This document shows, piece by piece, positions 19,048-48,797 of a stretch of 64,000 bases of DNA; within the stretch, counting starts at the first letter, position 1, and every line of letters starts with the position of its first letter. Below the pieces are notes generated by a model. The model did no database searches and was not told the origin of the DNA. It was given only the letters and a program-made list of their open reading frames with translations. Location of the stretch: assembly GCA_973895155.1 (NCBI GenBank), contig OZ316895.1:9536184-9600183 (forward strand), in the 5' to 3' direction. The stretch is from Marsupella aquatica (taxonomy: Eukaryota > Plantae > Marchantiophyta). The position numbers and the translations under genes were made by a program.

Positions 19048-20540
19048 AGTGGTGAACCTAGCCACCCAACGCCCTCACCAATCCCAATACTTGCGCCTAA
19101 GTGCCTTTGGTGCCCGAACGCCTCCACGGAATACCTTGAGCAAGCATCCAAGTGCCTCTAGCACCACCTGCGGCCCCTCTCCATACGAAGCCGCACTTGC
19201 TCACCTACACGACCGCTACTCAACGGTCCTCATTGTCTGCACAAGCAACCAAGCACCTCGGTAAGTAACCCCTCTAGATCTAGAACTCGCCAAGTCTAGC
19301 ATCCTAACTCAAGCTCAACAGACATTGGTAAATAGGTCAGTGATAGGTCCTCCCGATGCCATAAGCCGGAACCAAAACCCACGCCCACTGTCTGTCCAAG
19401 ACAGCTCCTTCCGTGGGCACGGCCCGGGTTCCTCCTTGTACCTATCCATCACCAACTGACCGTCCTGACCTCAGGACATGCTCATGGCCCAAATAGCGTA
19501 GCTTATCCTAAAGCTTGTCCCAAGCTTGTCTCAATACGTTGGGATAGAATGGCCTTGACTCTAATAACCGCTCCCGGTTTGCCCCACTGATGATCTAGGG
19601 ACCGAGCGCCCTTGGGACTCAGCCTCCATACCTACTTGGCCTTGCCTCCCCAACGCAAGCTCCCTTGGGAGGCTGAACGCAGCTTGGCTGCTATTCGGTA
19701 GGATTTGGCAAGCGAGCGAGCTAACACCCGCAAACCACGAGAACCCATGGCACCCTCAGACCCCTTTGAGCTCAAGAGGGCGTAGCCCTCTTCAAGAGAT
19801 TTCTAACGCACCCAAGAAGTCCTCCAACAAACTTCCCGTTGGGAAGATATCGCCATTTCCGTTTGGCGGTTTCCCTTAGTGTCGCGACGGCCGCGGCTCA
19901 TGACTTCGGCTCGGCCTTAGCCCCCAGGTTGACACCACTCCCCTCATATATGCTTCTGGAGACCTGCCACCCCCGGGCCAACTTTGGTCCCTAAACATTT
20001 GGCCCCCAACCCGGATCCCATCGCGCATAATGGGCGCGTCACCAACTGGCAACGCCCATAACTTTCTTGATAGGCATCCGCAAGCAGAGTGCCTTAGCCC
20101 ATTGTGACCGGGCCGACCCAGTGCTCATGCCTAGGCCCTCAGGTCTGATCGCTGCTCGGGGCCCCTGACCGGCCCAACCCGGATCGGGCCACAACTTGCG
20201 CCCCAAGCGTCCGTTGCCAATGGCGTCAACTCCATTGGCCTTGGGCCCAAGAGGAGCTCACTCCCAAGCCCTCAGAACTCAAAGTCCATCCGACGGTCCG
20301 GACGGCCATCCTTGAGCCCAGCCCTTTTGCCTTGACCCAACCAGCCATAGGCCAGTCCAAGTCCTTAGTGTGTGTCCCCAGCTTGGCCCCTTGCCTCGCT
20401 AGTGCCATGTCTCATTGCCCACAAGTCTCCCCGTGCTAAGTCCTCCCCAGATGGCCTATCCGTGCCTGGACCATAAGGGAGCTCGGCGTCGAAGTCAGCA
20501 ACGCCAGAGCTAAGTGTTAAGGTAGTCGAGTTCCGCGACT
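19048..20540 (-). repeat. 3' LTR of the chromovirus
   Basis: Direct repeat of 53483-54976, adjacent to the PPT. Confidence 0.9.
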
Positions 20541-21064
20541 TGCACCCCCCCCGTAAAAATGGTCACGTCCGCGTGACCTTAGTAAACGTTCCAACACGCC
20601 TAGACCACTTTGGGCCTTAAACATTTTATGAGGTAACAAATGGTTTGCCCATAAGGCTGATGCAAACCAGGTTGGTATGTGCATTCCACACTTAGGAAAT
20701 TCCAACCTATCCCACTTATCCAAGTAGGACGCCAGTCCAAACGGGTAAGCTAACTCCAAACTCGTCGGACCCATTGTCTTCCCCTTGGGGCGCTCCCCTT
20801 TGGTTCGAACTAGCCCGCCCACAGATGTAGGGCGAGCACCATCAACTTCCACTCGCAAAAAGCAATTCAAATCAGCCGCCCAACAACCTCTAGCACCAAC
20901 GCAATCCGACTTTATCCTTAAGAGGCCGAGAGGAGTGAAACTAGGATACAACTCACAAAGGTAGCTACAGTTGCCTGTACCAGTTCACAACGGCGGTACG
21001 CCGCTTTGCATATGATAGCTTCCAAGGATCTCTTAGGCATTACCCAAATTTTCTTCCGGCTCCC

Positions 21065-24000
21065 TGTGATGCCTAGATAGGAATCACTCGGCCGGTTAAG
21101 TGGGTAAAGCAGGAAGGCACCCTAGGAACACCTTAGTATAGTGACAAAACAAGGAAAATATAAACAATTAGGGGCAACCATGGAACCCGGGCAGAGGCCG
21201 GAGGTAAGGCTGAGGGTGAAAACCCGATTAGGGTTAGGGCGCGTTAAGCGTCGGCGGCTAGGAAGGATCAACGGGAAGAAGGACCGGCAGAGGAGAGGGG
21301 TAAGGAGCGCTTGCAGGAGATGATGGCTCATTTGCGAGCACGAACTAGGCAGACGACTACGGGAGGCCAACTACTGTCAGCTGCTTAGGCAAGCACTCGG
21401 GGAGAGAGTAGATACGACGATCAACCTAAGGAGGGTATGAGCAACGTCAATCAAGCGGCACATTTCTGGGGATGCCTGTTCGAACGGGCAACTGAGTACA
21501 TCAAGACTTACGAGGACGAGGAGTCAGAAAGGGCAGCTCGAGAACGGCAGGAGCTCGCTCGATTGTGGGAGCTGCAGAAGACGGCTTTCTTAGGAGGCGA
21601 ACTCATCAAGGATGAGTTCTTGTGGACGCCTACTTCCAATCAATTCGACGATCTTCTGTTTTGCAAAGACAGCGTCGTCGGCATCCGAGAGGCCATCAAG
21701 AACTGCAACGACATACACTGGGAATTAAAGGGTAGCACGGAAAGGTGGACCCGGGCAACGGTGCTAGGAGAAACCTCCACGGCAGCAGAGATGAAGAGGA
21801 AGGGAGCCGTCAACGATGAAGCCACCCCGGCAAAAAGAACGAGGTCGGCGGCACCAAAGAAGCCAGCCGAGCAGCAGAGCAGGAGGCAGGGAGAAGCCGA
21901 AGAGGAGGAGGTCGATCCCATCAAGGCCATTCCAACCAGGGATGACACCTGGAAGGGCTGGGCGGCAACCCTACCGGTGGAGGTGCAACTACATTTTGCA
22001 CGGGAGGAGGATGCATGCTTTACGGCCATGCAGACCAAGAAGTACCAAGGCTTCATGGCCGGATCCGGCTTGGAGACCTTTGTAAGATTACCATGGCTGA
22101 AGCCGGAGGTACCGGAGTCAGACCTATTAGAATTCGTGGGGTCATGGGAACCCGAGACCAATTGCACGAGGATATATGGGAAGGATTTCTATCTTACTCC
22201 CAAGGTGATTGCCGAAGTGTTTGGCTTGCCGATGGGCAATAAGACCAAAGTTGATACCAGGAAGACCTTGCCTGACAAGGAGTTCCGGTCGTTCCCCGGG
22301 CCATCAACGAAGAATGGCTTCTTCCGGAACACCTGCACCAACCCGCACATAGGAGAGATGATCGACTTCTTGCGAGTGACCATGCATTGTAACTTGCCGA
22401 GGGCAGAGATCGGCAAGGCACAGGTCTATCTGGCAGAAAGGCCAGACCCAAGCCGGGACTACAACGGGTACCTCCTCAACCAATTGAAGAAGATCTTAAA
22501 GGAGGAGCAGCAGGTAATCGGCATGGGGAGCGTGTCGCGGCTTGGCTATCACATGCCGCTGTTGTGCCGGTATGCCAGAGGTCAGACTTTTGCCCCGGTA
22601 CTTCCCCTGCAGGTAAGGGCACCCGAGGAAGCTCCAACGCCGAGGCCGTTGGCTGAGAAGCCTCAACCACCTGTTAGTCCTACGATCGAGCAGGTGTTTA
22701 GGCCCAGGAAGGAAGACTTGCCGATGCAGCAACCAGGCATGCAGAGTCTGCTGAAACTACTGGAGAAAGAAAAGAAATCGGCATCGGCAACAACAACGGC
22801 AACGGCAACAATGCAGGACACTACTACAGAGGTAGGCCTACACCGGCTCACAAGAGAAAACCCCTTTGCTGGAGACAAGGAGAGAATCAGGCCGGAATCC
22901 AAGCCAGGTGTTCGAATGTACGTGGGAACCTCAAGCTCCGAATCGGAGGCAGAATTGCCTGAAGCTCCTACCAACGAAGAGGAGAGGGAGAAGCCGGACA
23001 TCCAAGAGGTAGAGGAGGCAGTGGAGGACTGCAGCCATGATAATTCCGGCTATGGGTCGGACCATCACGTTCCAGGAGTAAGGACCTGTGGCCGGTTTGT
23101 CCCCACACTTCCAAGGGTAGTGCGAGGGGACCCCAACCAGCAGAGTAGCCCTGAGTCTCCCCCACCAGATGTTGCTCCCCCGAGCTTCGACGGCATAAAA
23201 CAGACGGTGCAGGAATTTCAGGAGCGAATCAAGCAGGAGGAAGAGGCCGCCCTGGCTAAGGAAAAGGATTTACCAGGAGGAGATTGGCCGGAGGACATCA
23301 GGCGGCTAGCCGAAAAAGGAAGCAAACCTCTAGCCACGATTGAAGAGATCCGCAGGACGGCTTGGGAGCAGAGGCCACGATGGGCGATGCCGATCACTTC
23401 TACTTACTCCACCTACGCTAAGAATAGAGCCATGGAGTATGGTGAGATGTGTGGGGAACTTGCGCTCGGCATCTTTGGAGAGGAGTTGGAGGTAGGACCC
23501 TTTTTTCATAGGGAGCAGTTGGAGAAGCACCAATTAGAAGAAGCGGTGGCTTTAGAGAGAAGCAAGAAGGACGAGGTCATTCGGCGGCTTAGGAGGATGG
23601 AAGCCGAGATTGAAGATCTAAGGGCGGCCAAGAAAGCCCAAGATGAACTGCGGATTAAACGACATGAGCTGAACATCATGCAGGGGCAGTTGGACGCCGC
23701 GCAGGCTGATAATCAGAATATCAAGGATAAACTGACTCAGACGCAGGAAGAGTTGGCCGACACGATCAAAGAAAGGGAAAAGTGGAAGCAAGAGCTGAAG
23801 AATACAGAGGAGGCCCACATAACAGCCAACAGCCGGGCCATGGCGGAGACCCAAAGAAAGGAATGGGCGTTGAAAGGGGAGCTCGAAAAAATCCGCGGAG
23901 CCCTTGAGCAGAAGGAGGTCGAGTTAGGGAAATCCTATCAAGGGATTATGGCGCTGCAGCAGGAGCTTGCGTCCCTGACGGCCAGCTTCAAGGCCGACCT

Positions 24001-25689
24001 AAGGGAGAAGGATGAGATGCTCGAACAGACTTACGCCAAGATGAACCAGATAGAGTCTGTCATCATTGCAGAGCTCGACAAGGAGCTAAGAGCAACCCAG
24101 GAGGAGAGGGCTACCTTGAAGAAGGAATTGGAGGAAGCCCACAGGGAGCAGGAGGAGGCCAAAAACGAGCTGGAGGGGGCACGTAAGGACCTGGATGAAA
24201 CCCAAGAGGAGTTGGAGGAAATCACGAGGAAGATGGAGAACCTACAGCGGCGGGCCGACAACCAAATAGAGCGGCTGAAGAAACAAGCCGCAGTATTTAA
24301 ATGCTTAGCTGCAGCAGGTCCATCTCCTGTTGGGACAAACCAGTTACCAGGGGTGGTAATTGCCGAAGGACAAGCCGCGCCACCTGCACCAGTGCCGGAG
24401 GTAAGTGGGAAGGGGAAGGGACCAGCTGCCGAGCCACCAACGAAGAAGAAGCGGAAACCTTCAGGGTCAAGGAGTAATACGACTTCACAGGCCGTGGTGA
24501 TCAAGGAGGTAGACCCAGCACCGACCCCAGACAGGGTCACGGCTAAGGATCCAACTACCCTAGGGGAAGGGGAAGCCGAAGCCGTGGGAGTGGCTGAGGC
24601 CGAAGCCGTGGGGATTGCCGAGGCCGGTGTCGAGGCTGAAGCCGAAGGTGGACCCAGTCAGGCCGATGGAGAGTTGACTCGGTCAAGGGCAGGTAATCTG
24701 TCAGTAGGCGGGCCAACGGCAGTGGCTGAGGAGGAAGTATTGGGGGCGTCCATTGAGGATCCACCACCGGTGTCGTGACGGTGCAAGGGCGCCGTTCCTT
24801 TTAGGGAGGGCGGACGTGGAGGGAGGAGGCGTGAGTGGGCAGGGCGGGCACGGATCTCCACGTTTAGGATTAGGATCAGAACCAGGAGCGGCCCTGACAC
24901 TTAGCTTAGTAGGATTGCGGTCCCACTGGTAGGAGCAACACTTGTGCTCCTGCCTTGCTGTACATAGGTAGATTCGGGCAAGTAGATTACTGTTAAGTAG
25001 ATTAGGCTTACGATGCAAAGAAGGGCGGATCCACTACCAGGATAAGTACCTGGGCAGCGGGGAGCTCAGGGCCTCTTCTTTAGCAAGTTTTTAGTTTGCA
25101 CCAGCCGGGCTGGGATCAAGTAGTACGAGAAGCTCTCGGTTAGTCATACAGTGACCCTTGTGTATATTCATGTTTCCTCATGCCTAAGAGCTGAATAGAG
25201 TTGGCCTCACGGCTTAGTTCGCAGAACTTGTGTATGAGATGTACTGTTTGTATGGCAAGTGCATGGTATGACTCAGTCAGAATGAGTCATTTTGCTATTT
25301 GTGTGTCGCATTAACTTGTGTGAAGAGTGCCCACATCAACAGAAGGAAGGAAAGTAAGCAGGGGAGTGAGAGTTGGATGTGTCGAGCTGAGAGAGGTCTT
25401 AGCGGCTTAACCAAGCCTATTGGGGATCATTCCGGCGGCGGAATCCAAACATACCTAACAAGATGGAGGGGAAGACAGGGGAAGGCCTATATTAGGCCGG
25501 CTACGTATCTCATGACCCGATGAAGGATCTGTCCAGTATATGTGTGTAAAATGTTAATAGTAGTAGTAGAAGGTTAGCAGCGTCCCATGCCGCTAAGCCG
25601 CGGAAACGGCCTCGCCAAGCACGAAACCTGCGGGAATCGGCTTGAGCTGGGGGGTTTCTTGGGTTTAGGGAGCCATGGGACGCACCACA
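21065..25689 (+). repeat. 5' LTR (4625 bp)
   Basis: Near-identical to 31915-36539. Confidence 0.95.
21437..24778 (+). CDS. LTR-encoded 1113-aa protein with a PMD-like segment and long coiled coil (copy 1)
   Basis: Open ORF entirely inside the LTR. LLEFVGSWEPETN...LTPKVIAEVFGLP resembles a Plant Mobile Domain, followed by an E/K/Q-rich heptad region. Confidence 0.8.
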   Translation: MSNVNQAAHFWGCLFERATEYIKTYEDEESERAARERQELARLWELQKTAFLGGELIKDEFLWTPTSNQFDDLLFCKDSVVGIREAIKNCNDIHWELKGSTERWTRATVLGETSTAAEMKRKGAVNDEATPAKRTRSAAPKKPAEQQSRRQGEAEEEEVDPIKAIPTRDDTWKGWAATLPVEVQLHFAREEDACFTAMQTKKYQGFMAGSGLETFVRLPWLKPEVPESDLLEFVGSWEPETNCTRIYGKDFYLTPKVIAEVFGLPMGNKTKVDTRKTLPDKEFRSFPGPSTKNGFFRNTCTNPHIGEMIDFLRVTMHCNLPRAEIGKAQVYLAERPDPSRDYNGYLLNQLKKILKEEQQVIGMGSVSRLGYHMPLLCRYARGQTFAPVLPLQVRAPEEAPTPRPLAEKPQPPVSPTIEQVFRPRKEDLPMQQPGMQSLLKLLEKEKKSASATTTATATMQDTTTEVGLHRLTRENPFAGDKERIRPESKPGVRMYVGTSSSESEAELPEAPTNEEEREKPDIQEVEEAVEDCSHDNSGYGSDHHVPGVRTCGRFVPTLPRVVRGDPNQQSSPESPPPDVAPPSFDGIKQTVQEFQERIKQEEEAALAKEKDLPGGDWPEDIRRLAEKGSKPLATIEEIRRTAWEQRPRWAMPITSTYSTYAKNRAMEYGEMCGELALGIFGEELEVGPFFHREQLEKHQLEEAVALERSKKDEVIRRLRRMEAEIEDLRAAKKAQDELRIKRHELNIMQGQLDAAQADNQNIKDKLTQTQEELADTIKEREKWKQELKNTEEAHITANSRAMAETQRKEWALKGELEKIRGALEQKEVELGKSYQGIMALQQELASLTASFKADLREKDEMLEQTYAKMNQIESVIIAELDKELRATQEERATLKKELEEAHREQEEAKNELEGARKDLDETQEELEEITRKMENLQRRADNQIERLKKQAAVFKCLAAAGPSPVGTNQLPGVVIAEGQAAPPAPVPEVSGKGKGPAAEPPTKKKRKPSGSRSNTTSQAVVIKEVDPAPTPDRVTAKDPTTLGEGEAEAVGVAEAEAVGIAEAGVEAEAEGGPSQADGELTRSRAGNLSVGGPTAVAEEEVLGASIEDPPPVS

Positions 25690-25759
25690 TTTTTTGGCGC
25701 TAGATGGAGGGGGCATTTCTTAAGCCGTGAGATATGAAGTTAGAACGGAAGCGTAGGTA

Positions 25760-28753
25760 ATGACTGACCTTACGCCGAGGGAAGAAAGAGTGATTCAACG
25801 GGAGAGAGCTCGACTGCAGCAGCTCGCCGGGTGGCATGATACACAGCGACTGAGAGGGGCAGAAAGAGCTGGTAGCTCCAAAACTGGAAGTGGCGTCGAA
25901 GAAGACATACCAGAAGAAGAGTCGGTAAGGAGAAGTGAGTCTCCAACCGACATGGGGGAACCAGAGGCACGGCCAGACGAGAGGCCAGGAACCAGATTGA
26001 GCCAGCGGTCGCGCATACATTACAAGGCATTTCATGGGAGAGGAGATGAGGATCCGGACGAATGGTTGGGTGATTTCGAGGGAACCGCTGCAGCAAATGG
26101 AGAATCGGCCATCAAGATGCAGATTCTTCCCGGCCTGTTCAAGGGTGAGGCTAGGCCTTGGTACAGAGCATTAGATGTGGAAGATCAAGCCATCTGGGAT
26201 ATCTTCAAAACACTCTTTGTTAAGGAGTTTTGACCCATTGGAACTTCAGAACTAGCAGTGCTGAAGTTGGGACAACTTCGGTTCAAGGAGAACAAATCCT
26301 TCAGGAAGTTCTTGCAACGCTTTCAGAAATTGGTAAGACGTACAAAGACCAATGCATCTGAAGGTATGCAACTTCAATGGTTGGTGAATGCTTTGCCACA
26401 GAAGATGAGTTTTGCAATTAGGAAGGAGAACCCGGAGACTTTAGCCGAAGCAATTAAGGATATTCAATTATACATTAATGCAGATATCACAAGCCGGAAG
26501 AAACAGCTTAAGTCTGAGAGTTCCTCATCAGAGGAGGGATCACCCCATAAGAAAAAAGATAAGAAGAAGAAACATTCCAAGAAGTCTAGAAGTGATAAGT
26601 CAAGCTCGGATAGTGGGAGTAGCAAGAGTGAGTCATCTTCTAGTTCTGAAGAAGAAAAAACTAGGAAAAGGAAGGGCAGAAGGAGAGGGAAGACGAAAGT
26701 CAAGATGGAGGCTAAGCCACCAGATAACATCGTAGCCCTTACCGAGCAACTTAAGGCTATCATTGCAGAGGTAAAACCAAAGAAGAAGGTAGTACAGGAG
26801 GATAGCTCTGTATGGTGTGCCTTATGTTATAAAACCGGACACCATAAAGATGCTTGTCCTAAGCTTAATACTAATCATGTTCGGCATGTGGCCGAGATCA
26901 GACCATGTCAGGGAGAAGTAGAGTACTTTTTGGGAGATGCCGCTGATAGTGTTTTCGGCATCAGTGAGACTGGAGCACGAGACCTATCCAACAGACCTGC
27001 ATCTCTGTGGTCAGGGTTAAGGAACAATCCAGGAGAGATGTATCCTCGGATTATTCAGAACCCGTCAGTACCTCCTAGGCCGAATGTGCAAAGATTTGCG
27101 GCGTGCTATAATTGTGGTCAACCTGGCCATTTTGCTAGAGAATGCCCGAATGCACGCAAACAGGGTGATGGACAACCAGCTCAACTATGTATGGGATGCC
27201 GACAGGAAGGTCATATGCTAGGGCAATGTCCTACTTGGTTGGCAGGCCTGGCCGCAAATCATAAGCTTTTGCCGATCAAGATCTTACCGCCAGGTACTAC
27301 CCCCGGAGGAGTTCAAATCAACCACATCGAACTAGGATGGCAAGAGGATGCCGAGGCAGAGTTCGTACCATCTGATGATGAGGCCGAAGCCCTATCAACC
27401 TTCTCAGAGGAGGATTTAGATCATGATTGCTACCGGGTCTCTACTCGATCTACCAGAAGGAAGGAAAGGTGGGATGGGCTGGCCAAAAATAAAGGGAAGG
27501 TTACGGAGGAAAGGATCGACTCTTCGTCAACATCAACAGAAGGAGAAGGGAGGGCTCCGGCAATACAGGTAAGCCATGAGCCCACCAGTGAAACCAATCC
27601 TTCACAAGATAGCGACTTCAATCGAGATCATCCTAAGTTGTTCTACCCCTCTGTTACGGCTAGTGTTAAGGAACAACTAAGAGAATTAGAAACCCTGGAG
27701 AATACCGAAGCCATTGCCAAGGATGTAAAACGAGCAAAAGCATTGTTTGCTTCGGAAGACCCAACAGCTGTGGAGACTAGCGTGGCAAAACTGGCCGAAT
27801 CCAAGACGGAAACACCACCAGAAGAGAAGCCGATTGTTCCCTATGACCTGGCTAAAGATGTACTAGAATCTAGAGTCTCGGCAACAGTAGGTCAACTATT
27901 GAAAAATAGCCCGTACTTCCGGAAGCAATTAAGGAAGGCTATTCTCGGCAAGCCGAGATTACCCAAGGTAGCAACCAGATCCGACGTACTAATGATAGAA
28001 GAGGATCAAGGAGCCCCAGCATTACCATTAATGATTCAAGGAGAATTATTACTACGGGTACCCATCGATGGAGGATCAGGGGTATGTATTATGATTGATT
28101 CAACAGCAAAAGGGTGGGGTCTAACACCGGAGATGACTGGAAGAGTGTTGAACATGGCCAATGGATATCAGGTCATTCCGACGGGAGTGTTAACCGGCAT
28201 CAAGACAGAGATAGGAGGTATCTTCTTTAGCATTAACTATGTAGTAATGAAGCCGGTAAATCCTACGTCATTCCGGCTATTGATTGGTAGACCATGGCTG
28301 TACCTAGCCGAGGTAATAGAAGATTGGGGTAAAAAGCAGTTCACTTTCGGGACCCCCTCTATCACGGTATCCTGGGACACTAAGGATGACCGTAGGAAAA
28401 GCATAAGGGAAGTAGATGGGTACGATAGTGGACTGGAGTCAGCCGATGAAGTACGTTGGTTAGAATGCTTCACTAACCTAACCGAAGAAGGTGTCTTTGG
28501 ACCAGAGGTACCCCCCAGCGGATTATGGCAAGAACCAATGGAAGGTGACTTGGAAGAAGAAGACGAAGAGGTCGAGGACTGCTTTACAATAGAATCCACC
28601 TTTTTAGCTGCAATTCCGGAGGAAGTAAAGGATGTAGACCAATTGGATGAAACGGCTAAGTGGGGAGCAGTAGCAGGGACAGTGGATTTTCTGCAGGCGT
28701 TGTGGCAGAGCCGACGGGGTCCACAACGCCATCGATCATTGGCAAGGAATTAA
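25760..28753 (+). CDS. gag: Gag-protease ORF1 with one in-frame TGA at 26231
   Basis: FHGRGDEDPDEWL capsid-like region, CCHC knuckles (CYNCGQPGHFAREC), and protease IDGGSG. The two ORF-track pieces are in the same frame. Confidence 0.85.
28684..28745 (+). promoter_or_regulatory. Putative -1 programmed ribosomal frameshift signal
   Basis: G_GAT_TTT in the gag frame, a 5-nt spacer, and a perfect 10-bp stem (28696-28705 with 28721-28730). Confidence 0.7.
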
Positions 28754-31700
28754 ATACCAAGGGATCGGCATACAAGCCGATTACGAGGGCAGAACAAATT
28801 GAGGCCCTATTAGAAGCCGAGAGAGCACAGCGGCCTAACTCTCAGGAGCAAGAGGTGGATGAGATGGACAGACACGATCCAGAGCCAAGGCAGGAAGGGG
28901 AGCCGACCACTAATTCAAAACCGAATAGACCGGTAAGGGGACAATCTATGGACACCAAGGAAGGGACCGACTCGGCTAGTCCAGCCGAGATCCCAGTTTA
29001 TGGAGGTATGAGATTAGAGAGACTGGAAGCCGAACTGGACCCGAATTTGAAGAAGCAGATTAATATGATCCAAGCACGGCAATATCGGAAGCTCGACTTA
29101 GGAGAGGGAAGAGAACTGAACTTAGGGAGAAACCTAGCACCTGAGCTCGAGAAAGAGATCAGTGACTTATTGATTGAATTTCAGGATGTGTTTGCATGGA
29201 GTCACCAAGATCTAAAGGGAGTAGATCCAACACTAGGGGAACATCGAATTGATCTCATGTTAGGAGCCAAATCATTTCGACAACCAATTCGAAGGATGAA
29301 CCCGAAGTATTCCCTGCTGGTCAAAACAGAAATCGACAAACTAGTGGAAGCTGGATTCATCACTCCAGTCCTGCATTCAGACTGGGTGTCTCCAATTGTG
29401 ATAGTTCCCAAGAAAGCTGGACCCGATGGTAAACCCAAGATCCGGGTTTGTCAGGATTACAGGAAGCTGAATGAAGCAACATTAAAAGACCATTTTCCTT
29501 TACCGTTTACTGATATGGTACTAGACATGGTAGCCAGTCATGAACTATATTCATTCATGGATGGATACTCTGATTATAACCAAATCAGGATTCGGCAGGA
29601 AGACCAAATCAAGACGGCCTTCATCACGGAATGGGGGATCTATGTCTTCAATCGTATGCCGTTTGGACTCTGCAACGCACCAGCTATGTTCCAACGATTA
29701 ATGGTGAACATTTTTCATGATTACTTGAGAAAGTTCATGGAAATCTTCATTGATGACTTTGTAGTATTCGGGAAGGCATCGAAACATGCTAAATACCTCA
29801 GGAAAACCTTCATGAGATGTAGGGAGGTGGGTCTCAAGTTACACCCAGATAAATGTTTTTTTGCAGTAACCGAGGGGGTGCTACTAGGTCACAAGGTATC
29901 AAGGAAGGGCATTGAGATTGACAAAGGTAAGCTAGCAGTATGGCTAGATATCATGCAACCTAAGAACATAAAGGATGTAAGATCCTTCTTGGGATGCATT
30001 GGTTACTATCGCCGGTTCATCAAGGATTTTGCCAAGCTAGCTTTACCATTAACCAATATGCTCAAGGCAGGAGCAGACTTCGAACCCACACCCGAACGAG
30101 TCACAGCGGTAGTAGAATTGAAGCAGATGTTAGTAGAGGCCCCAGTCATGATAGCACCGGACTGGAACAAAGATTTTCATGTTTTTGTAGATGTCTCGGG
30201 CTTCTGTATTGGCTCAGTACTAAGTCAGTTGGATGAGAAAGGAAGGGACCATCCCATATACTTCGCAAGCCGTCAGCTTGCCGATGCCGAACGGAACTAC
30301 TCTACCACGGAAAGAGAAGCATTAGGAGTCATTTATTCTTGTAAAAAGTTTAGGCATTATTTACTAGGGTACAAGGTAATCTTTCATACGGATCATGAAA
30401 GTTTGAAGTACCTAGTCAATAAGCCAGACCTTACAGGCAGAGTAGCAAGATGGATTTTGCTATTACAGGAGTTTGACTATGAGCTGAGGATCAAGCCAGG
30501 AAAGTTACATGCCAATGCCGACTTCTTTTCAAGGATCACAGGTAAACCTGCCACGGATTGCATCGATGATCGATTCCCCGACGAGGAGCTATTCGTTGTG
30601 GAAATAGCTGGTACATGGTACCCTGAGATTTTACAATTTCTCAGCACTTCCAGATTACAGCCAGGATTAAGCCGAGAGCAAGCCGCAGTCTTTGTGCGGA
30701 AGGTCAGACAGTATCAGTGCATTAAAGGCATACTGCACAAGCATGGAATCAACAGCACGATTCAAAGGTGTTTGGAGAAGAGAGAGGTAAAACGAGTCCT
30801 ACGGGCCATGCATGGAGAGGAGGCCGGAGGACATTTTGCCCCAGTAACCACGTCTAAGAAAATATTAAATGCCGGTTACTGGTGGCCCACCTTGCACAAG
30901 GATGTCTATCAGTTTATCAAACAATGCGATCCTTGTCAACGAGCGGGAGGACCAAGGGCGTCCACCAGGCATCCACTGCACCCTATTCTACCTCTGGCAC
31001 CATTCGAGAAGTGGGGTATTGATTACATTGGACCTCTGAAACCACTGACCCACCCTCGACGGAACAAGTACATAATCCTGGCTACGGATTATGCAACTAA
31101 ATGGGTAGAGGCCAGACCAACAACGAAGGATGATGCAATTACTACGGCTAGATTCATGTATGAGCAGATCTTCACCAGGTATGGAGCACCCCTAGAATTA
31201 GTTAGTGATAGAGGAACCCATTTTTTGAATGATATAATTAGTCGTTTAAATGAGCAGTATTTAGTTAAACATAGGCCTACTACTCCCTACCATCCAAAGG
31301 CAAACGGGTTGACAGAACGAGCAAACGGAATCATAGGAAAGATATTGAACAAGACAGTAGCTCAGAACAAACTCGATTGGGATGATAAATTGTTTGCTGC
31401 TGTTTTTGTTTACAATCTGGCCTATAAATCCACTACCGGTCATACACCCTTCTTCTTAACCTTTGGACAAGAAGCCCTGGTACCCATGCAACTTGAGATA
31501 CCGACATTTCAAGTTACAATTGAGGAAAGAGCCTCAGCGGAGGAGAGCCTAAAGGAGCGAGAATATAGGTTAGAAGCTTTAGAGGAAGCGAGAATGATTT
31601 CAGCCGAGAGAGTAGAATATAGACAGAATATCATGAAGCAGCAGTATGATAAAAGGTTAAAAGTAGTTAGTATTCATACCGGTGATCTTGTGCTACTTTA

Positions 31701-31926
31701 TGACAGTAGGTATAGTAGGTTTCCAGGAAAGCTTTACACTCGCTGGTTAGGACCCTTTAGAGTAACCATGATGTTCCCCAATGGCTCCGTGCAATTGGCC
31801 AACATTACGGGAGAGGTATATCCAGTTCGCATCCATTATGACCGCCTCAAGAAATACTATATGGACGAAGATGAAGTTGTTCGCGAGGACGCTTCACAAT
31901 TAAGTGGGGAGCTATGTGATGCCTAG
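28684..31926 (+). CDS. pol: Pol (RT-RNase H-integrase) in the -1 frame
   Basis: RVCQDYRKLN, MPFGLCNAP, FIDDF, RNase H VDVSG/TDH, integrase HHCC and GIDYIG/SDRG/ERAN, and a GPF motif. No chromodomain is present. Confidence 0.92.
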   Translation, partial: GFSAGVVAEPTGSTTPSIIGKELNTKGSAYKPITRAEQIEALLEAERAQRPNSQEQEVDEMDRHDPEPRQEGEPTTNSKPNRPVRGQSMDTKEGTDSASPAEIPVYGGMRLERLEAELDPNLKKQINMIQARQYRKLDLGEGRELNLGRNLAPELEKEISDLLIEFQDVFAWSHQDLKGVDPTLGEHRIDLMLGAKSFRQPIRRMNPKYSLLVKTEIDKLVEAGFITPVLHSDWVSPIVIVPKKAGPDGKPKIRVCQDYRKLNEATLKDHFPLPFTDMVLDMVASHELYSFMDGYSDYNQIRIRQEDQIKTAFITEWGIYVFNRMPFGLCNAPAMFQRLMVNIFHDYLRKFMEIFIDDFVVFGKASKHAKYLRKTFMRCREVGLKLHPDKCFFAVTEGVLLGHKVSRKGIEIDKGKLAVWLDIMQPKNIKDVRSFLGCIGYYRRFIKDFAKLALPLTNMLKAGADFEPTPERVTAVVELKQMLVEAPVMIAPDWNKDFHVFVDVSGFCIGSVLSQLDEKGRDHPIYFASRQLADAERNYSTTEREALGVIYSCKKFRHYLLGYKVIFHTDHESLKYLVNKPDLTGRVARWILLLQEFDYELRIKPGKLHANADFFSRITGKPATDCIDDRFPDEELFVVEIAGTWYPEILQFLSTSRLQPGLSREQAAVFVRKVRQYQCIKGILHKHGINSTIQRCLEKREVKRVLRAMHGEEAGGHFAPVTTSKKILNAGYWWPTLHKDVYQFIKQCDPCQRAGGPRASTRHPLHPILPLAPFEKWGIDYIGPLKPLTHPRRNKYIILATDYATKWVEARPTTKDDAITTARFMYEQIFTRYGAPLELVSDRGTHFLNDIISRLNEQYLVKHRPTTPYHPKANGLTERANGIIGKILNKTVAQNKLDWDDKLFAAVFVYNLAYKSTTGHTPFFLTFGQEALVPMQLEIPTFQVTIEERASAEESLKEREYRLEALEEARMISAERVEYRQNIMKQQYDKRLKVVSIHTGDLVLLYDSRYSRFPGKLYTRWLGPFRVTMMFPNGSVQLANITGEVYPVRIHYDRLKKYYMDEDEVVREDASQLSGELCDA

Positions 31927-34900
31927 ACAGGAATCACTCGACCGGTTAAGTGGGTAAAGCAGGAAGGCACCCTAGGAACACCTTAGTATAGTGACAAAAC
32001 AAGGAAAATATAAACAATTAGGGGCAACCATGGAACCCGGGCAGAGGCCGGAGGTAAGGCTGAGGGTGAAAACCCGATTAGGGTTAGGGCGCGTTAAGCG
32101 TCGGCGGCTAGGAAGGATCAACGGGAAGAAGGACCGGCAGAGGAGAGGGGTAAGGAGCGCTTGCAGGAGATGATGGCTCATTTGCGAGCACGAACTAGGC
32201 AGACGACTACGGGAGGCCAACTACTGTCAGCTGCTTAGGCAAGCACTCGGGGAGAGAGTAGATACGACGATCAACCTAAGGAGGGTATGAGCAACGTCAA
32301 TCAAGCGGCACATTTCTGGGGATGCCTGTTCGAACGGGCAACTGAGTACATCAAGACTTACGAGGACGAGGAGTCAGAAAGGGCAGCTCAAGAACGGCAG
32401 GAGCTCGCTCGATTGTGGGAGCTGCAGAAGACGGCTTTCTTAGGAGGCGAACTCATCAAGGACGAGTTCCTGTGGACGCCTACTTCCAATCAACTCGACG
32501 ATCTTCTGTTTTGCAAAGACAGCGTCGTCGGCATCCGAGAGGCCATCAAGAACTGCAACGACATACACTGGGAATTAAAGGGTAGCACGGAAAGGTGGAC
32601 CCGGGCAACGGTGCTAGGAGAAACCTCCACGGCAGCAGAGATGAAGAGGAAGGGAGCCGTCAACGATGAAGCCACCCCGGCAAAAAGAACGAGGTCGGCG
32701 GCACCAAAGAAGCCAGCCGAGCAGCAGAGCAGGAGGCAGGGAGAAGCCGAAGAGGAGGAGGTCGATCCCATCAAGGCCATTCCAACCAGGGATGACACCT
32801 GGAAGGGCTGGGCGGCAACCCTACCGGTGGAGGTGCAACTACATTTTGCACGGGAGGAGGATGCATGCTTTACGGCCATGCAGACCAAGAAGTACCAAGG
32901 CTTCATGGCCGGATCCGGCTTGGAGGCCTTTGTAAGATTACCATGGCTGAAGCCGGAGGTACCGGAGTCAGACCTATTAGAATTCGTGGGGTCATGGGAA
33001 CCCGAGACCAATTGCACGAGGATATATGGGAAGGATTTCTATCTTACTCCCAAGGTGATTGCCAAAGTGTTTGGCTTGCCGATGGGCAATAAGACCAAAG
33101 TTGATACGAGGAAGACCTTGCCTGACAAGGAGTTCCGGTCGTTCCCCGGGCCATCAACGAAGAATGGCTTCTTCCGGAACACCTGCACCAACCCGCACAT
33201 AGGAGAGATGATCGACTTCTTGCGGGTGACCATGCATTGTAACTTGCCGAGGGCAGAGATCGGCAAGGCACAGGTCTATCTGGCAGAAAGGCCAGACCCA
33301 AGCCGGGACTACAACGGGTACCTCCTCAACCAATTGAAGAAGATCTTAAAGGAGGAGCAGCAGGTAATCAGCATGGGGAGCGTGTCGCGGCTTGGCTATC
33401 ACATGCCGCTGTTGTGCCGGTATGCCAGAGGTCAGACTTTTGCCCCGGTACTTCCCCTGCAGGTAAGGGCACCCGAGGAAGCTCCAACGCCGAGGCCGTT
33501 GGCTGAGAAGCCTCAACCACCTGTTAGTCCTACGATCGAGCAGGTGTTTAGGCCCAGGAAGGAAGACTTGCCGATGCAGCAACCAGGCATGCAGAGTCTG
33601 CTGAAACTACTGGAGAAAGAAAAGAAATCGGCATCGGCAACAACAACGGCAACGGCAACAATGCAGGACACTACTACAGAGGTAGGCCTACACCGGCTCA
33701 CAAGAGAAAACCCCTTTGCTGGAGACAAGGAGAGAATCAGGCCGGAATCCAAGCCAGGTGTTCGAATGTACGTGGGAACCTCAAGCTCCGAATCGGAGGC
33801 AGAATTGCCTGAAGCTCCTACCAACGAAGAGGAGAGGGAGAAGCCGGACATCCAAGAGGTAGAGGAGGCAGTGGAGGACTGCAGCCATGATAATTCCGGC
33901 TATGGGTCGGACCATCACGTTCCAGGAGTAAGGACCTGTGGCCGGTTTGTCCCCACACTTCCAAGGGTAGTGCGAGGGGACCCCAACCAGCAGAGTAGCC
34001 CTGAGTCTCCCCCACCAGATGTTGCTCCCCCGAGCTTCAACGGCATAAAACAGACGGTGCAGGAATTTCAGGAGCGAATCAAGCAGGAGGAAGAGGCCGC
34101 CCTGGCTAAGGAAAAGGATTTACCAGGAGGAGATTGGCCGGAGGATATCAGGCGGCTAGCCAAAAAAGGAAGCAAACCTCTAGCCACGATTGAAGAGATC
34201 CGCAGGACGGCTTGGGAGCAGAGGCCACGATGGGCGATGCCGATCACTTCTACTTACTCCACCTACGCTAAGAATAGAGCCATGGAGTATGGTGAGATGT
34301 GTGGGGAACTTGCGCTCGGCATCTTTGGAGAGGAGTTGGAGGTAGGACCCTTTTTTCATAGGGAGCAGTTGGAGAAGCACCAATTAGAAGAAGCGGTGGC
34401 TTTAGAGAGAAGCAAGAAGGACGAGGTCATTCGGCGGCTTAGGAGGATGGAAGCCGAGATTGAAGATCTAAGGGCGGCCAAGAAAGCCCAAGATGAACTG
34501 CGGATTAAACGACATGAGCTGAACATCATGCAGGGGCAGTTGGACGCCGCGCAGGCTGATAATCAGAATATCAAGGATAAACTGACTCAGACGCAGGAAG
34601 AGTTGGCCGACACGATCAAAGAAAGGGAAAAGTGGAAGCAAGAGCTGAAGAATACAGAGGAGGCCCACATAACAGCCAACAGCCGGGCCATGGCGGAGAC
34701 CCAAAGAAAGGAATGGGCGTTGAAAGGGGAGCTCGAAAAAATCCGCGGAGCCCTTGAGCAGAAGGAGGTCGAGTTAGGGAAATCCTATCAAGGGATTATG
34801 GCGCTGCAGCAGGAGCTTGCGTCCCTGACGGCCAGCTTCAAGGCCGACCTAAGGGAGAAGGACGAGATGCTCGAACAGACTTACGCCAAGATGAACCAGA

Positions 34901-36539
34901 TAGAGTCTGTCATCATTGCAGAGCTCGACAAGGAGCTAAGAGCAACCCAGGAGGAGAGGGCTACCTTGAAGAAGGAATTGGAGGAAGCCCACAGGGAGCA
35001 GGAGGAGGCCAAAAACGAGCTGGAGGGGGCACGTAAGGACCTGGATGAAACCCAAGAGGAGTTGGAGGAAATCACGAGGAAGATGGAGAACCTACAGCGG
35101 CGGGCCGACAACCAAACAAAGCGGCTGAAGAAACAAGCCGCAGTATTTAAATGCTTAGCTGCAGCAGGTCCATCTCCTGTTGGGACAAACCAGTTACCAG
35201 GGGTGGTAATTGCCGAAGGACAAGCCGCGCCACCTGCACCAGTGCCGGAGGTAAGTGGGAAGGGGAAGGGACCAGCTGCCGAGCCACCAACGAAGAAGAA
35301 GCGGAAACCTTCAGGGTCAAGGAGTAATACGACTTCACAGGCCATGGTGATCAAGGAGGTAGACCCAGCACCGACCCCAGACAGGGTCACGGCTAAGGAT
35401 CCAACTACCCTAGGGGAAGGGGAAGCCGAAGCCGTGGGAGTGGCTGAGGCCGAAGCCGTGGGGATTGCCGAGGCCGGTGTCGAGGCTGAAGCCGAAGGTG
35501 GACCCAGTCAGGCCGATGGAGAGTTGACTCGGTCAAGGGCAGGTAATCTGTCAGTAGGCGGGCCAACGGCAGTGGCTGAGGAGGAAGTATTGGGGGCGTC
35601 CATTGAGGATCCACCACCGGTGTCGTGATGGTGCAAGGGCGCCGTTCCTTTTAGGGAGGGCGGACGTGGAGGGAGGAGGCGTGAGTGGGCAGGGCGGGCA
35701 CGGATCTCCACGTTTAGGATTAGGATCAGAACCAGGAGCGGCCCTGACACTTAGCTTAGTGGGATTGCGGTCCCACTGGTAGGAGCAACACTTGTGCTCC
35801 TGCCTTGCTGTACATAGGTAGATTCGGGCAAGTAGATTACTGTTAAGTAGATTAGGCTTACGATGCAAAGAAGGGCGGATCCACTACCAGGATAAGTACC
35901 TGGGCAGCGGGGAGCTCAGGGCCTCTTCTTTAGCAAGTTTTTAGTTTGCACCAGCCGGGCTGGGATCAAGTAGTACGAGAAGCTCTCGGTTAGTCATACA
36001 GTGACCCTTGTGTATATTCATGTTTCCTCATGCCTAAGAGCTGAATAGAGTTGGCCTCACGGCTTAGTTCGCAGAACTTGTGTATGAGATGTACTGTTTG
36101 TATGGCAAGTGCATGGTATGACTCAGTCAGAATGAGTCATTTTGCTATTTGTGTGTCGCATTAACTTGTGTGAAGAGTGCCCACATCAACAGAAGGAAGG
36201 AAAGTAAGCAGGGGAGTGAGAGTTGGATGTGTCGAGCTGAGAGAGGTCTTAGCGGCTTAACCAAGCCTATTGGGGATCATTCCGGCGGCGGAATCCAAAC
36301 ATACCTAACAAGATGGAGGGGAAGACAGGGGAAGGCCTATATTAGGCCGGCTACGTATCTCATGACCCGATGAAGGATCTGTCCAGTATATGTGTGTAAA
36401 ATGTTAATAGTAGTAGTAGAAGGTTAGCAGCGTCCCATGCCGCTAAGCCGCGGAAACGGCCTCGCCAAGCACGAAACCTGCGGGAATCGGCTTGAGCTGG
36501 GGGGTTTCTTGGGTTTAGGGAGCCATGGGACGCACCACA
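31915..36539 (+). repeat. 3' LTR (4625 bp)
   Basis: Near-identical to 21065-25689. Confidence 0.95.
32287..35628 (+). CDS. LTR-encoded 1113-aa protein (copy 2)
   Basis: Open ORF differing from copy 1 by only a few residues. Confidence 0.8.
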   Translation: MSNVNQAAHFWGCLFERATEYIKTYEDEESERAAQERQELARLWELQKTAFLGGELIKDEFLWTPTSNQLDDLLFCKDSVVGIREAIKNCNDIHWELKGSTERWTRATVLGETSTAAEMKRKGAVNDEATPAKRTRSAAPKKPAEQQSRRQGEAEEEEVDPIKAIPTRDDTWKGWAATLPVEVQLHFAREEDACFTAMQTKKYQGFMAGSGLEAFVRLPWLKPEVPESDLLEFVGSWEPETNCTRIYGKDFYLTPKVIAKVFGLPMGNKTKVDTRKTLPDKEFRSFPGPSTKNGFFRNTCTNPHIGEMIDFLRVTMHCNLPRAEIGKAQVYLAERPDPSRDYNGYLLNQLKKILKEEQQVISMGSVSRLGYHMPLLCRYARGQTFAPVLPLQVRAPEEAPTPRPLAEKPQPPVSPTIEQVFRPRKEDLPMQQPGMQSLLKLLEKEKKSASATTTATATMQDTTTEVGLHRLTRENPFAGDKERIRPESKPGVRMYVGTSSSESEAELPEAPTNEEEREKPDIQEVEEAVEDCSHDNSGYGSDHHVPGVRTCGRFVPTLPRVVRGDPNQQSSPESPPPDVAPPSFNGIKQTVQEFQERIKQEEEAALAKEKDLPGGDWPEDIRRLAKKGSKPLATIEEIRRTAWEQRPRWAMPITSTYSTYAKNRAMEYGEMCGELALGIFGEELEVGPFFHREQLEKHQLEEAVALERSKKDEVIRRLRRMEAEIEDLRAAKKAQDELRIKRHELNIMQGQLDAAQADNQNIKDKLTQTQEELADTIKEREKWKQELKNTEEAHITANSRAMAETQRKEWALKGELEKIRGALEQKEVELGKSYQGIMALQQELASLTASFKADLREKDEMLEQTYAKMNQIESVIIAELDKELRATQEERATLKKELEEAHREQEEAKNELEGARKDLDETQEELEEITRKMENLQRRADNQTKRLKKQAAVFKCLAAAGPSPVGTNQLPGVVIAEGQAAPPAPVPEVSGKGKGPAAEPPTKKKRKPSGSRSNTTSQAMVIKEVDPAPTPDRVTAKDPTTLGEGEAEAVGVAEAEAVGIAEAGVEAEAEGGPSQADGELTRSRAGNLSVGGPTAVAEEEVLGASIEDPPPVS

Positions 36540-36544
36540 CTCCC

Positions 36545-37907
36545 AAGTACTCTCGGCCTGATCATAGCCAGCCCACTTCACCAAATACTCTAAGATTTGC
36601 CTTTCCAACTTGCGTTTGTAACGGTGGTCCAGAATTGCCTCCACCTCAAACTCCTCAGCGTCCTCCACCAGCATGGCATCCGGACGCAAGACCTGATCCC
36701 GGTTGGGATCATCGTCTTTGACAAACTTCTTGAGCCGGCTAACATGGTAGCTTTTGCCCACGCCCATTTCCTTGGGTGTGTCCAACACCACCAAAACCGG
36801 ATTATCCTTGTGGGCCCATCGTATGATGCGATAGGGCCCCGCATATCTGGGAGCCAGCTTCCTACTTATGTTCCCGTGGTATTGCTCAGGTCTCAACTGC
36901 AACCAGACGCTCTCCCCAATTTCAAAGCTTACCTGGCGTCAATGTTTATCCCCTTGCTCCTTGTACCGACTTTGGGCAAGGGTCATACCCTTGGTAGCCG
37001 TTTCCACAACTAGGCACCGCTCTCGAATAAAATCGTCCGTAGAAGGAACCTTGCTTTTCGTCCGCCAAGCTTCCGGAGTCCTCCTTGTGGCCAACACAAA
37101 CGGCGCAAACCCCGTCACCAAATGCTTGGTCGAGTTATACCTAAACTCGACCATTGTTAAATGCTTCGCCCAATCCTTCTGATTGGCTGTCACAAAGTGA
37201 CGCAAGTAGTCCTCCACGATACCATTAACCCGTTCTGTTTGGCCATCTGTCTCATGATGATACGTTGATCCCTTGGTCAGGTCTGTTCCGGATAATCGGA
37301 ACAACACCTTCAAAAAATGGCCCGTGAACTTGGTATCGCGATCGGATAGGATATGCAACGGCAATCCCCACTGTCGGAAGACATTGTCAAATACTAGACC
37401 GACAACCTCTCGGGCCGAAACCATCTTCGTAGTAGGCAAGAAATATGCCATCTTGGAAAAATGATCCACGATTGTTAAGATGGAGTTACTGCCGTGAGAC
37501 TCAGGTAATCCAACAATGAAGTCCATGGAGATAGACTCTCATGGAGCTGCAGCTACTGGTAAGGGTTGCAACAGTCCTTTTGCCCTATAGACCATTCGGT
37601 TCTTTTGGCACGAGTAACAACTTTGCACGTGTTGAAGGATCGATTGCTTCATGTCCGGCCAATACACATCTTGTGACATGCTGCGATACGTGGCGGCTTG
37701 TCCTATGTGCCCTCCCCAGGGCGAGTCGTGGTACTTTTGTAGAACCTCTAACCTTAGAGACTCTAGTATGTACACACGCCTCTGCTTGTATCGCCATAAC
37801 TGGACATTATGCGTCGTATCCAACCCCAATGATACGTGCCTTACCTTTGCCCCGGCTACCCCCATTGCTTTGCCAATTCTTAGCTAACCTGTCATCCCCA
37901 TACGCTG
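36545..37907 (-). pseudogene. Chromovirus integrase and chromodomain (frameshifted); the chromodomain continues at 21064
   Basis: MDFIVGLP, SDRD, TDGQTERVN, GPY, and FEVEAILDH...YLVKWAGY...STWE. Confidence 0.9.
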
Positions 37908-38563
37908 CGGCCAGAAGGGCCCAACCTCCATGACAGGAAACAGGAAACAGTGATGATCATAACAGGAAAAATAGTTGAACAAAACAGGAGAATTGGTATT
38001 ATCATTGAGAAAAAATGGCTTAATTTTGGACCCAACCAAAGAGGTCAAATTCAACATCAACTCAAAAAGATGGGGAAAATGACAATTATCGAAAGATGCC
38101 TTTACTAGCGCTTAGTCCTAACCAAGCGTTTGATACCGTTACAAAATATCATTAACAAAATACTCGCTCACCATCTACCGGAATGATCAGAGGATAACGG
38201 TTTCTAAGGCAAGAAAAGGTCATCCTCAAGAATGCATGCAAAAGAAATCCACACGTTCAGACCTAGAAACTACAAACTGAAACCAAGTAAGGAAATGAAG
38301 TCTAGCGCCGGGCGCTAACAAAATTGAAGTCCAAGTGACGATTGAATACAAAGAAATCTCCGTTACCCGTACAATGAAATTTACACATCCAAAAAACTGT
38401 AAAAACAAATTAAGTTTTTTGTGCAACCCACAAAAGATTGAGCCATGTTGAAAAGCAACCAAATGTTGTTTACTAGCGCTGGACGCTAACCAAAACAAAG
38501 TTACCGTTACGAAACGACAAGTCGTACATACCCGTTGAACGTAAACTAGAATACTAAGCCTTC

Positions 38564-41500: not shown

Positions 41501-42313
41501 GACTTGAGTCCTGGTGTAAAACTCACATGCTCTATTTCGGCATTCGAGAGAACCACTACAACTTACTTTCCCAAACTCCCACATCTTCTTCGGAACGACA
41601 TTAGCAGAAGTAGGAAGGATTCTAGTCCAAAGGTAGCAGTCCTTGCATCAATCCATGTTTCGCAGACGATCCCCTTTCGAGCCAACACCTTGAACAGGTG
41701 GAAGCTCAGATATGGTATTCCCATTGTACTCGACAGGTAAGCATTCAACTTGTTTGTGAATGAATGCCTCGGACCTAACAAAGCGCGCTAACTCACTTTG
41801 TCCAGTTGACTTCAACAAGGCATCAAGTGCGCTTCTTCTGTACACAACCAGAACAGGACGAGTTAGAGTGTCTCCATCATCAGACTCCTCCGACGGAATC
41901 AATACGGGGGGTACCTGGGGCGTCAACAAACTGGTACTTCCGCCCTCCTTATTGACCTCACCGCCCTTTGAGATTGGTGGAGAACCCTCAGAGCATTCAG
42001 CGTTGGACGTAAGGTCAATCACATCGTGAGTGACCTGGTGCCTCTCCACCTTGACATGAACAATGTCCCTGAGTTGAATGAAAATCAAGTACTCCACGCC
42101 ATATTCGAGATTCCAAACAACGTCCTCCGCTTTAGTATCAAAATGAGAGGGCCCATCGTTCAAAGTTCTGATACTCAAAATATGTTTTCTCGTCACCCCA
42201 AATCTTCCACACAGGTAATTATCACTAACACGTTTCTTGGTTTCGGAAATCGACACAGGGATCGTCACAACGTCACCTATATTCGGACATGTTATTCCAA
42301 TAATGCGAGACAT
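38564..42313 (-). pseudogene. MULE-type DDE transposase with an N-terminal Cys/His (GCM/WRKY-like) region and a C-terminal SWIM finger
   Basis: VSFDVMKR, GFMADNAQ, FHFYQSL and SWIM CSC...CKH. It has in-frame stops, one frameshift at ~40595, and an intron at ~40283-40058. Confidence 0.8.
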
Positions 42314-48326: not shown

Positions 48327-48797
48327 ATGGATAAGGGAAAGCAAATAGCAAAATCGGAGAGCTGCAATCCGCCAAAGGCGATGGTTTGGAGGTCGATTAG
48401 AGATCCGGGTTTAGATTTGACTCCATCTTTTACGCAGTGCCCAGAGACGTCGACCGAGAGGAACAAGTTGTGGCTGGCCACGGATGAGGGTATTAGCCAC
48501 AGAACTGGACACCTTCCATCGCGTGATCCTTCGCCTCCACTTCCTTTTCGAGAGAGGTTCTCTGTTCACGACCCTGATCCTTCCAATGTGTATCGGGTGG
48601 AAAGGACATCTTTTTTCAGAGACATCCAAGCAGACACCGGACGTGTGAGCTTTTCAGATTCGAACATCCTGAACGACCGGAGTCGGAGTCGCTATCCCGG
48701 ACCTCGTTTTTTTCTGGATCGAGAGGATGGGTTTCGACAGGATGAGGATAGGTTCAAAGTTGGGTTGGACGACGACTGCATGTTTTCTACTTCCTAG
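48327..48797 (+). CDS. Possible small third ORF of the MULE (156 aa, unknown function)
   Basis: ATG-initiated open frame between two palindrome copies, with no recognisable motif. Confidence 0.3.
   Translation: MDKGKQIAKSESCNPPKAMVWRSIRDPGLDLTPSFTQCPETSTERNKLWLATDEGISHRTGHLPSRDPSPPLPFRERFSVHDPDPSNVYRVERTSFFRDIQADTGRVSFSDSNILNDRSRSRYPGPRFFLDREDGFRQDEDRFKVGLDDDCMFSTS

Follow-up and report, generated by a model that had tools for sequence, protein, structure and literature searches.

Open reading frames (ORFs) inside long terminal repeats (LTRs) are known from vertebrate retroviruses, where sag of mouse mammary tumour virus (MMTV) and nef of primate lentiviruses lie within the LTR's 5' third and reach both LTRs through reverse transcription, and where conservation is centred on the R (repeat) and U5 (unique 5') regions with the ORFs in the 5' part (PMC2664473). 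According to the plant surveys cited here, extra ORFs are internal (PMC7264820, PMC6317226); one of these surveys admitted LTRs of up to 6 kb (PMC6317226). In the mostly open-access literature we found no plant precedent for an ORF inside an LTR; the supplements of PMC6317226 may contain unremarked cases. Here, we describe a 15,475-bp Ty3/Gypsy retrotransposon in a 64,000-nucleotide stretch of the genome of the liverwort Marsupella aquatica (contig OZ316895.1, positions 9,536,184 to 9,600,183; hereafter, the window), each LTR of which contains an ORF of 1,113 amino acids (aa), referred to as the LTR gene. On balance, we favor a reading in which this is a young non-chromovirus Ty3/Gypsy copy, the LTR gene is likely a former 3' accessory ORF of Athila type that now likely lies in U3 (unique 3'), and its product is predicted to be a nuclear coiled-coil regulator. 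MMTV sag and nef are the closest architectural precedent; they differ in belonging to vertebrate retroviruses and, in the case of MMTV, to an LTR of 1.3 kb, whereas the LTR gene spans 3.3 kb wholly within the LTR, and we found no sequence relation between them. What is known already is that retroviral LTRs can contain ORFs; what is unusual here is the size and the plant host.

Among described plant elements, Athila shares several features of the layout. As described, Athila elements are non-chromovirus Gypsy elements with neither a chromodomain nor an additional RNase H and with a 5-bp target-site duplication (TSD) (PMC11728184, PMC6317226, bioRxiv 10.64898/2026.03.20.713144), as is the case here, and in both the LTR end is followed by a short AT-rich spacer and a primer-binding site (PBS) of TGGCGC type. 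The Athila PBS TGGCGCCGTTGCC (tRNA-Asp/Asn, Brassicaceae) matches the present element in the AT-rich spacer and the first six letters, whereas the rest differs. Both also have a sense accessory ORF after pol with a predicted nuclear localization signal (NLS), and coiled coils are described in Athila-domain proteins, which have been modeled as coiled-coil pentamers (PMC13547354). The Athila ORFs matching PF20167 or PF03078 are reported as sense and 3' of pol, the sunflower ORF in this position being a PF20167 match for which an NLS is predicted (PMC11728184). However, in Athila the ORF follows pol and precedes the polypurine tract (PPT), whereas here the PPT lies in the integrase end and the ORF is downstream of the PPT, in both LTRs; moreover, Athila LTRs measure 1–2 kb compared to 4.6 kb here, and the present ORF has no Pfam profile match.

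Other plant elements share single features with this one. The antisense ORFs of Retand, Grande and RIRE2, like the LTR gene, combine a small plant-transposon domain with a long coiled coil (PMC11963269, PMC7264820). In Retand, Transposase_28 is joined to Smc-like coils (PMC11963269), and the product of Grande gene23 is reported to be nuclear, the gene having its own promoter (PMC7264820). These ORFs are antisense and internal and belong to an angiosperm Tat lineage with an additional RNase H, whereas the LTR gene is sense and LTR-borne. Ogre and Retrosat2 are plant Gypsy elements with LTRs of 3–6.5 kb and extra ORFs (PMC6431247, PMC3485330), but their extra ORFs are described as internal or 5' of gag-pol and their long LTRs as non-coding.

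Results

The LTR gene lies wholly within true LTRs

Self-BLAST of the window returned an ungapped direct repeat (21065–25689 and 31915–36539, both + strand) of 4,625 bp per unit, with 99.57% identity and 20 substitutions. Both units have the TG...CA ends of an LTR, starting with TGTGATG and ending with CACCACA, and are flanked on the outside by the TSD CTCCC (21060–21064 and 36540–36544). The insertion cuts the chromodomain of an older chromovirus-type element on the minus strand (36540–36650; PF00385, E 8e-12): the match covers profile positions 1–34 of 53 and stops at the element edge, and the frame resumes in the left flank (below 21064). Because the TSD and the split of the chromodomain fall at the repeat ends, integrase used these exact ends, and the repeat ends are the true integration ends. 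Because the LTRs diverge by only 0.43%, the insertion is young. The older element that hosts this nested insertion spans 19048–54976 on the minus strand, with LTRs at 19048–20540 and 53483–54976 that are 94% alike, gag at 51408–52631, reverse transcriptase (RT) at 49862–50914, integrase at 36939–37526, and the chromodomain.

Directly 3' of the 5' LTR, behind a 5-nt T spacer, lies the PBS-like motif TGGCGCTAGATGGAGGGG (25695–25712, +). A search of 21000–26400 gave no Rfam match for this motif, the LTR holds no self-priming complement to it of at least 9 nt, and the 64-kb window contains no tRNA gene. The PPT-like motif AAGTGGGGAGCTA (31902–31914, +), assigned by position and not purely purine, lies inside the integrase coding frame.

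The LTR gene is open in both copies (21437–24778 and 32287–35628, both +; 1,113 aa each) and occupies LTR positions 373–3714, that is, 72.3% of the LTR. A preliminary description of this DNA had placed two open ORF copies wholly within true LTRs, filling about 72% of each, with roughly 20 substitutions between the LTRs; the measured share, the 20 substitutions, the TSD, the TG/CA ends and the PBS-like and PPT-like motifs bear this out.

The internal region has no room for a 3' ORF

The internal region of 6,225 bp encodes gag-protease followed by RT, RNase H and integrase in the -1 frame. The gag-protease frame (25760–28753, +) has a weak Retrotrans_gag match and a zf-CCHC match (E 1.2e-8), and in this copy it contains a single in-frame stop (26231–26233). 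The pol frame (28660–31926, +) encodes RT, RNase H and integrase. Within the gag/pol overlap, the heptamer G GAT TTT (28684–28690, +), which we take to be a slippery motif of frameshift type, is in phase and followed by a predicted 10-bp stem, making this the likely site of a -1 frameshift into pol.

Pol contains one RNase H only, and the 6,225-bp interior is too small for a second. Pol has no Chromo match at E<=0.05 and ends at the LTR; on its domain content, the element is a non-chromovirus Ty3/Gypsy element. Membership in Tat (TatI–III, Ogre, Retand) was considered and ruled out since the additional RNase H is missing. The pol stop codon coincides with LTR positions 10–12, i.e., pol ends 12 nt into the 3' LTR, and the ATG of the second LTR gene copy follows 360 nt past this stop. 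With the pol stop within the LTR and the PPT within the integrase frame, pol and LTR are not separated by a spacer of the kind in which Athila and Tat elements carry their extra ORFs, and the interior has no room left for a 3' ORF.

The reading frame of the LTR gene is probably maintained across the family

At the local base composition, the chance of a stop-free frame of this length is ~1e-21, and the longest frames in the other five readings are 93–208 codons. An origin of the ORF as a product of tandem repeats was rejected because only short imperfect repeats are present. The two ORF copies differ at 16 sites, of which 6 are synonymous and 10 non-synonymous; given that the neutral synonymous expectation for transitions is 34% and that the probability of both copies staying open is 0.63, this split is as neutral decay predicts, and we rejected the LTR–LTR differences as a test of selection.

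We therefore turn to other family members. Half or more of the sampled words were contained in 5 of 13 public runs listed, under three organism codes, one run possibly being the window's own sample. Contigs of four runs were compared with the interior and the 3' LTR, and four runs (two of them new) with the ORF; no piece listed spans a whole LTR. Pieces 80–90% alike in these public contigs span the ORF with few gaps. Among the indels listed (12 of 21), 11 lie in the LTR and only 1 of these 11 in the ORF (P 2e-5); in the worst case, with all nine further indels placed in the ORF, P is 0.03. The comparison over the ORF alone gave five indels, of which two compensate each other, one removes 3 nt and two remove a single base; none of the five is in runs X4 and X6. 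Among the ORF substitutions listed (40 of 314), 16 are synonymous, 24 non-synonymous and none creates a stop, and 20 of the 40 are in third positions (P 0.02). Leaving out 6 of these 40 that are private to the 5' LTR, the family variants (13 synonymous, 21 non-synonymous) give a dN/dS (non-synonymous rate divided by synonymous rate) of ~0.47 (P 0.03 against equal rates). With relatives existing, indels avoiding the ORF and zero stops among the variants listed, the LTR gene looks real; on these variants, the constraint bears on the frame more than on individual residues.

The same layout appears to recur outside this copy. At the window edge, the 3' end of a third LTR copy (62880–64000, -; 96.5% identity over 1,061 bp) contains the ORF tail in frame with the same stop before it runs off the window, in agreement with the earlier assignment of a copy beyond 64000 to the family. 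In run X6 (organism D), a contig passes from 106 letters of other DNA to the exact first base of the LTR. Among the joints listed for run X1 (15 of 222), an LTR end is joined to the PBS, and LTR ends at 31915 and 36537–36539 are joined to nested positions. Joints in X1 connect 36539 to 33410, 33977 and 35695, and 35328 to 31915, as if some family copies sat within the LTR gene of others. Contig depth, a weak measure that gives no copy number and is used as support only, placed each of nine ORF bins above each of 17 internal bins in runs X1 and X2 (median ratio 3.4), while ORF bins exceeded gag-protease bins by factors of 3.1 and 3.4 in X4 and X6, where the pol bins are inflated, probably through sequence from other families.

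These observations bear on whether the repeat could be a one-off segmental duplication or an assembly artefact around a short-LTR element, the case that the preliminary description had named as its own refutation. A 4.6-kb LTR is rare, and the third copy by itself cannot reveal its LTR start; yet the TSD and the split chromodomain lie at the exact repeat ends, the repeats differ at 20 sites, several of which are private to one repeat relative to family contigs (5 of 17 and 6 of 40 variants listed), identical LTR ends occur in other runs, and the ORF is deeper than the interior. We consider this case ruled out for practical purposes. We conclude that the layout is very probably family-wide and the gene maintained by selection.

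The predicted protein may be distantly related to Athila-type accessory proteins

The predicted protein consists of a helical N-terminal part, a basic linker with an NLS-like motif, a core domain, an acidic proline-rich linker, a coiled coil, and a low-complexity tail with a second basic motif. The conserved core domain (aa 161–385; 21917–22591, +) has relatives at 18–42% identity, and the long predicted coiled coil (~aa 691–955, ~260 aa; 23507–24301, +) gives a heptad signal in windows 771–980. The basic motifs are KRK/KRTR at aa 120–136 and KKKRK at aa 1003–1007, which we take to be NLS-like. Because no membrane helix is present (best 19-residue hydropathy window 0.98), the protein is not env-like. 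Folding of the single sequence gave a pLDDT of 31; with a 22-row alignment, pLDDT rose to 55 (pTM 0.34), and the model is confident just at a helix–β-hairpin–helix at ~aa 220–260. No match was obtained among PDB sequences, nor for this poor model in Foldseek PDB or BFVD, and VIA-align wide reached a best Z of 4.9, with generic helices only; these results neither demonstrate nor rule out a known fold.

Using aa 1–400 as query, 23 matches at E<=0.001 were obtained among 1.84 billion representatives (best E 1e-49): 18 over the core (aa 161–385), four over the N-terminal part, and one false match to a repeat protein. Nine relatives were looked up, and all three with a named organism are from the liverwort Calypogeia fissa. 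A 787-aa relative has the core domain followed by a C-terminal coiled coil, the same order as in the LTR gene product. Word-indexed protein searches with the whole ORF, with aa 160–400, and with the alignment among proteins of 1,303–3,720 aa returned nothing, a result weakened by length limits, and scans of metagenome contigs and of viral contigs with pol turned up no locus. The language-model resource Atlas pointed to Transposase_32 and ATHILA ORF1 in both searches (0.88–0.90), PF20167 being assigned to 27 of 30 named matches (best 0.90). On this basis, the core domain is probably a distant member of the Transposase_32/ATHILA ORF1 group.

Position of the LTR gene relative to U3, R and U5

The 372-nt leader between the LTR start and the ORF contains the sole canonical TATAAA of the LTR (21159–21164, +; LTR position 95), a candidate promoter for which the chance expectation in the leader is 0.12. 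The leader is purine-rich (11–19% T) and contains no TGTA or AATAAA-like signal, whereas the stretch 3' of the ORF does have such signals, which we take to follow the plant poly(A) pattern. In this stretch, a 318-nt block (25024–25341, +) is without difference in the third copy (P 0.002, for a block chosen after the fact) and contains GTATAT, three TGTA past 25230, AATGAG, two TGASTCA motifs and a T-rich stretch. The poly(A) site likely lies in this block, which may also be the U3/R/U5 core. The two TGASTCA motifs (25268–25290), presumably GCN4/AP-1-like, form a short inverted repeat. A weaker TATA-like site lies at 25162. A TATAAA before the ORF and poly(A)-like signals after it fit a U3 with an internal promoter, and also a 4-kb R; under either reading, a single LTR would contain the promoter, the ORF and the poly(A) site.

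A location in U5 is unlikely because the leader lacks poly(A)-like signals. In Ogre, the extra ORF is located 5' of gag. Under an origin of this kind, the gene would have come from 5' of gag and been enclosed in U5 by a move of the PBS, and the genomic RNA would have its 3' end within the first 372 nt of the 3' LTR; the TATA box at LTR position 95 would then yield a short U3, and Ogre elements with plant-mobile-domain ORFs have been reported (PMC6317226). We regard this origin as very unlikely: the purine-rich leader would have to supply the signals that instead follow the ORF, the protein lead is PF20167/PF03078 rather than PF10536, and without an additional RNase H the element is not an Ogre.

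A more serious alternative, though still an improbable one, is that the ORF lies in a giant R. The TATAAA at 21159 would then start all RNAs near 21,190, RNAs polyadenylated in the 5' LTR would make the accessory protein, and a read-through RNA of ~15 kb with two ORFs would serve as the genome and, after splicing out of the ORF, for gag-pol. The sole canonical TATA box does precede the ORF, poly(A)-like signals follow it, and donor-like GGTAAGG sequences lie at 21202 and 21298 before the ORF and acceptor-like pyrimidine-AG sequences at ~24795–24804 and 25072–25083 after it. On the other hand, by the established mechanism of reverse transcription this arrangement requires that the strong-stop DNA be ~4.5 kb long and that the 5' poly(A) site be suppressed; there are 19 ATGs from the ORF stop to the gag start; TATAWA is expected 0.12 times by chance in the leader; and the invariant block is placed as a compact promoter–R core would be.

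We consider a location of the ORF in U3 the probable one. In its favor, both the poly(A)-like signals and the invariant block follow the ORF, and in retroviral LTRs, too, the ORFs are found 5' and the conservation around R and U5 (PMC2664473). Genomic RNA would start downstream of the ORF, near 25,200, from the TATA-like site at 25162, and would hold a single ORF copy at its 3' end, which reverse transcription would copy into both LTRs. The TATAAA would be the gene's own promoter inside U3; it is rather probable that the gene is transcribed from this site and ends at the LTR poly(A) site, such that each LTR, including a solo LTR, would be a complete expression unit. In reverse transcription, the PPT defines the start of U3. 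With a new PPT at the integrase end, a single round of reverse transcription would make U3 of everything downstream, and we infer such an event here. Tentatively, and by analogy, we suggest that the protein may act in the nucleus, in trans and as an oligomer, to favor expression of the family or its escape from silencing. The preliminary description had suggested a 3' accessory ORF absorbed into U3: its 3' origin fits both the PF20167/PF03078 lead and the pol stop inside the LTR, whereas the TATA and poly(A)-like signals fit a 4-kb R as well as U3.

Several observations weigh against the reading of the LTR gene as a constrained Athila-type accessory gene in U3. Concerning its origin, we saw no relative whose ORF is internal, so that the direction of change stays an inference; the Pfam profiles PF20167, PF03078, PF04195 and PF10536 matched 0 of 22 aligned members at E<=10; and the Atlas score is borderline, with 153 of 256 features shared compared to 170 typical of family members, near the level of shuffled proteins. 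Concerning its position, the best TATA box is 5' of the ORF and the downstream ones are weak. Concerning constraint, the two single-base ORF deletions each occur in a single low-depth contig of run X9; the dN/dS of ~0.47 is not significant against a transition-only expectation (P 0.36); the synonymous share among variants listed is higher in pol (8/10) than in the ORF (6/17; P 0.046, or 0.20 without five private variants); in the third copy, divergence has been faster in the ORF tail (17/148) than in non-coding LTR sequence (18/911); and amino-acid constraint on the gene appears weak. The dN/dS among family copies, which the preliminary description had proposed as a check against neutral evolution, is thus below one when judged against equal rates and indecisive when judged against transitions only, and two open copies are in themselves no evidence of selection.

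The same data bear on a passenger gene, i.e., a real layout with a once-functional accessory ORF that is still open through recent amplification. The LTR–LTR differences are neutral-like, the family dN/dS is not under the transition-only expectation, and in Brassicaceae the Athila ORF is described in only about a quarter of elements and without an assigned function (bioRxiv 2026.03.20.713144). Nevertheless, indels avoid the ORF, zero stops and an excess of third-position changes are found among the variants listed, pieces 80–90% alike cover the ORF with few gaps, a higher dN/dS is reported for accessory than for core proteins of transposable elements (PMC13547354), and if 6.7 kb per element were useless, deletions should be favored. 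We therefore judge a passenger to be quite unlikely and retain the reading of a maintained gene in U3.

Other features in the window

Inside the older chromovirus-type element, an 11-kb stretch (37933–49635) has at its two ends an imperfect inverted repeat of 235 bp (76%) and may be a so far undescribed DNA transposon; on both strands, it contains several ORFs (38981–46617) that have no Pfam match. A Replitron lies at 1192–2442; it has an HUH endonuclease domain (PF21859, E 1e-16) and a C-terminal domain, and short tandem repeats stand before it at 422–734. A 178-aa ORF (8599–9135) without Pfam match, a possible gene transfer or remnant, presumably resembles bacterial carboxymuconolactone-decarboxylase/peroxidase-like proteins. 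A 591-aa ORF (60698–62473, -) has no Pfam match and looks transposase-like by eye, and the window also has a chlorophyll a/b-binding gene, a sign of a land-plant host; the Replitron and the named relatives suggest that this host is a non-seed plant.

Discussion

Plant LTRs are usually treated as non-coding. From this high-copy family and its 3.3-kb LTR gene, it is evident that a coding U3 (or R) of very large size is compatible with reverse transcription. With it, plants have an equivalent of MMTV sag and HIV nef, and a solo LTR has to be seen differently. Annotation is affected as well, since these LTRs will appear there as host genes by the thousand. What Athila-type accessory ORFs do can be tested directly here, since LTRs alone may suffice to express the gene.

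It is possible, although we hold it to be rather doubtful, that the 4.6-kb LTR is itself a self-contained gene with promoter, 1,113-codon ORF and poly(A) site, such that the regulator is duplicated with each transposition and solo LTRs leave working copies of a trans-acting nuclear factor across the genome. If so, the formation of solo LTRs, which is the usual deletion route of the host, would no longer remove the accessory function of the family.

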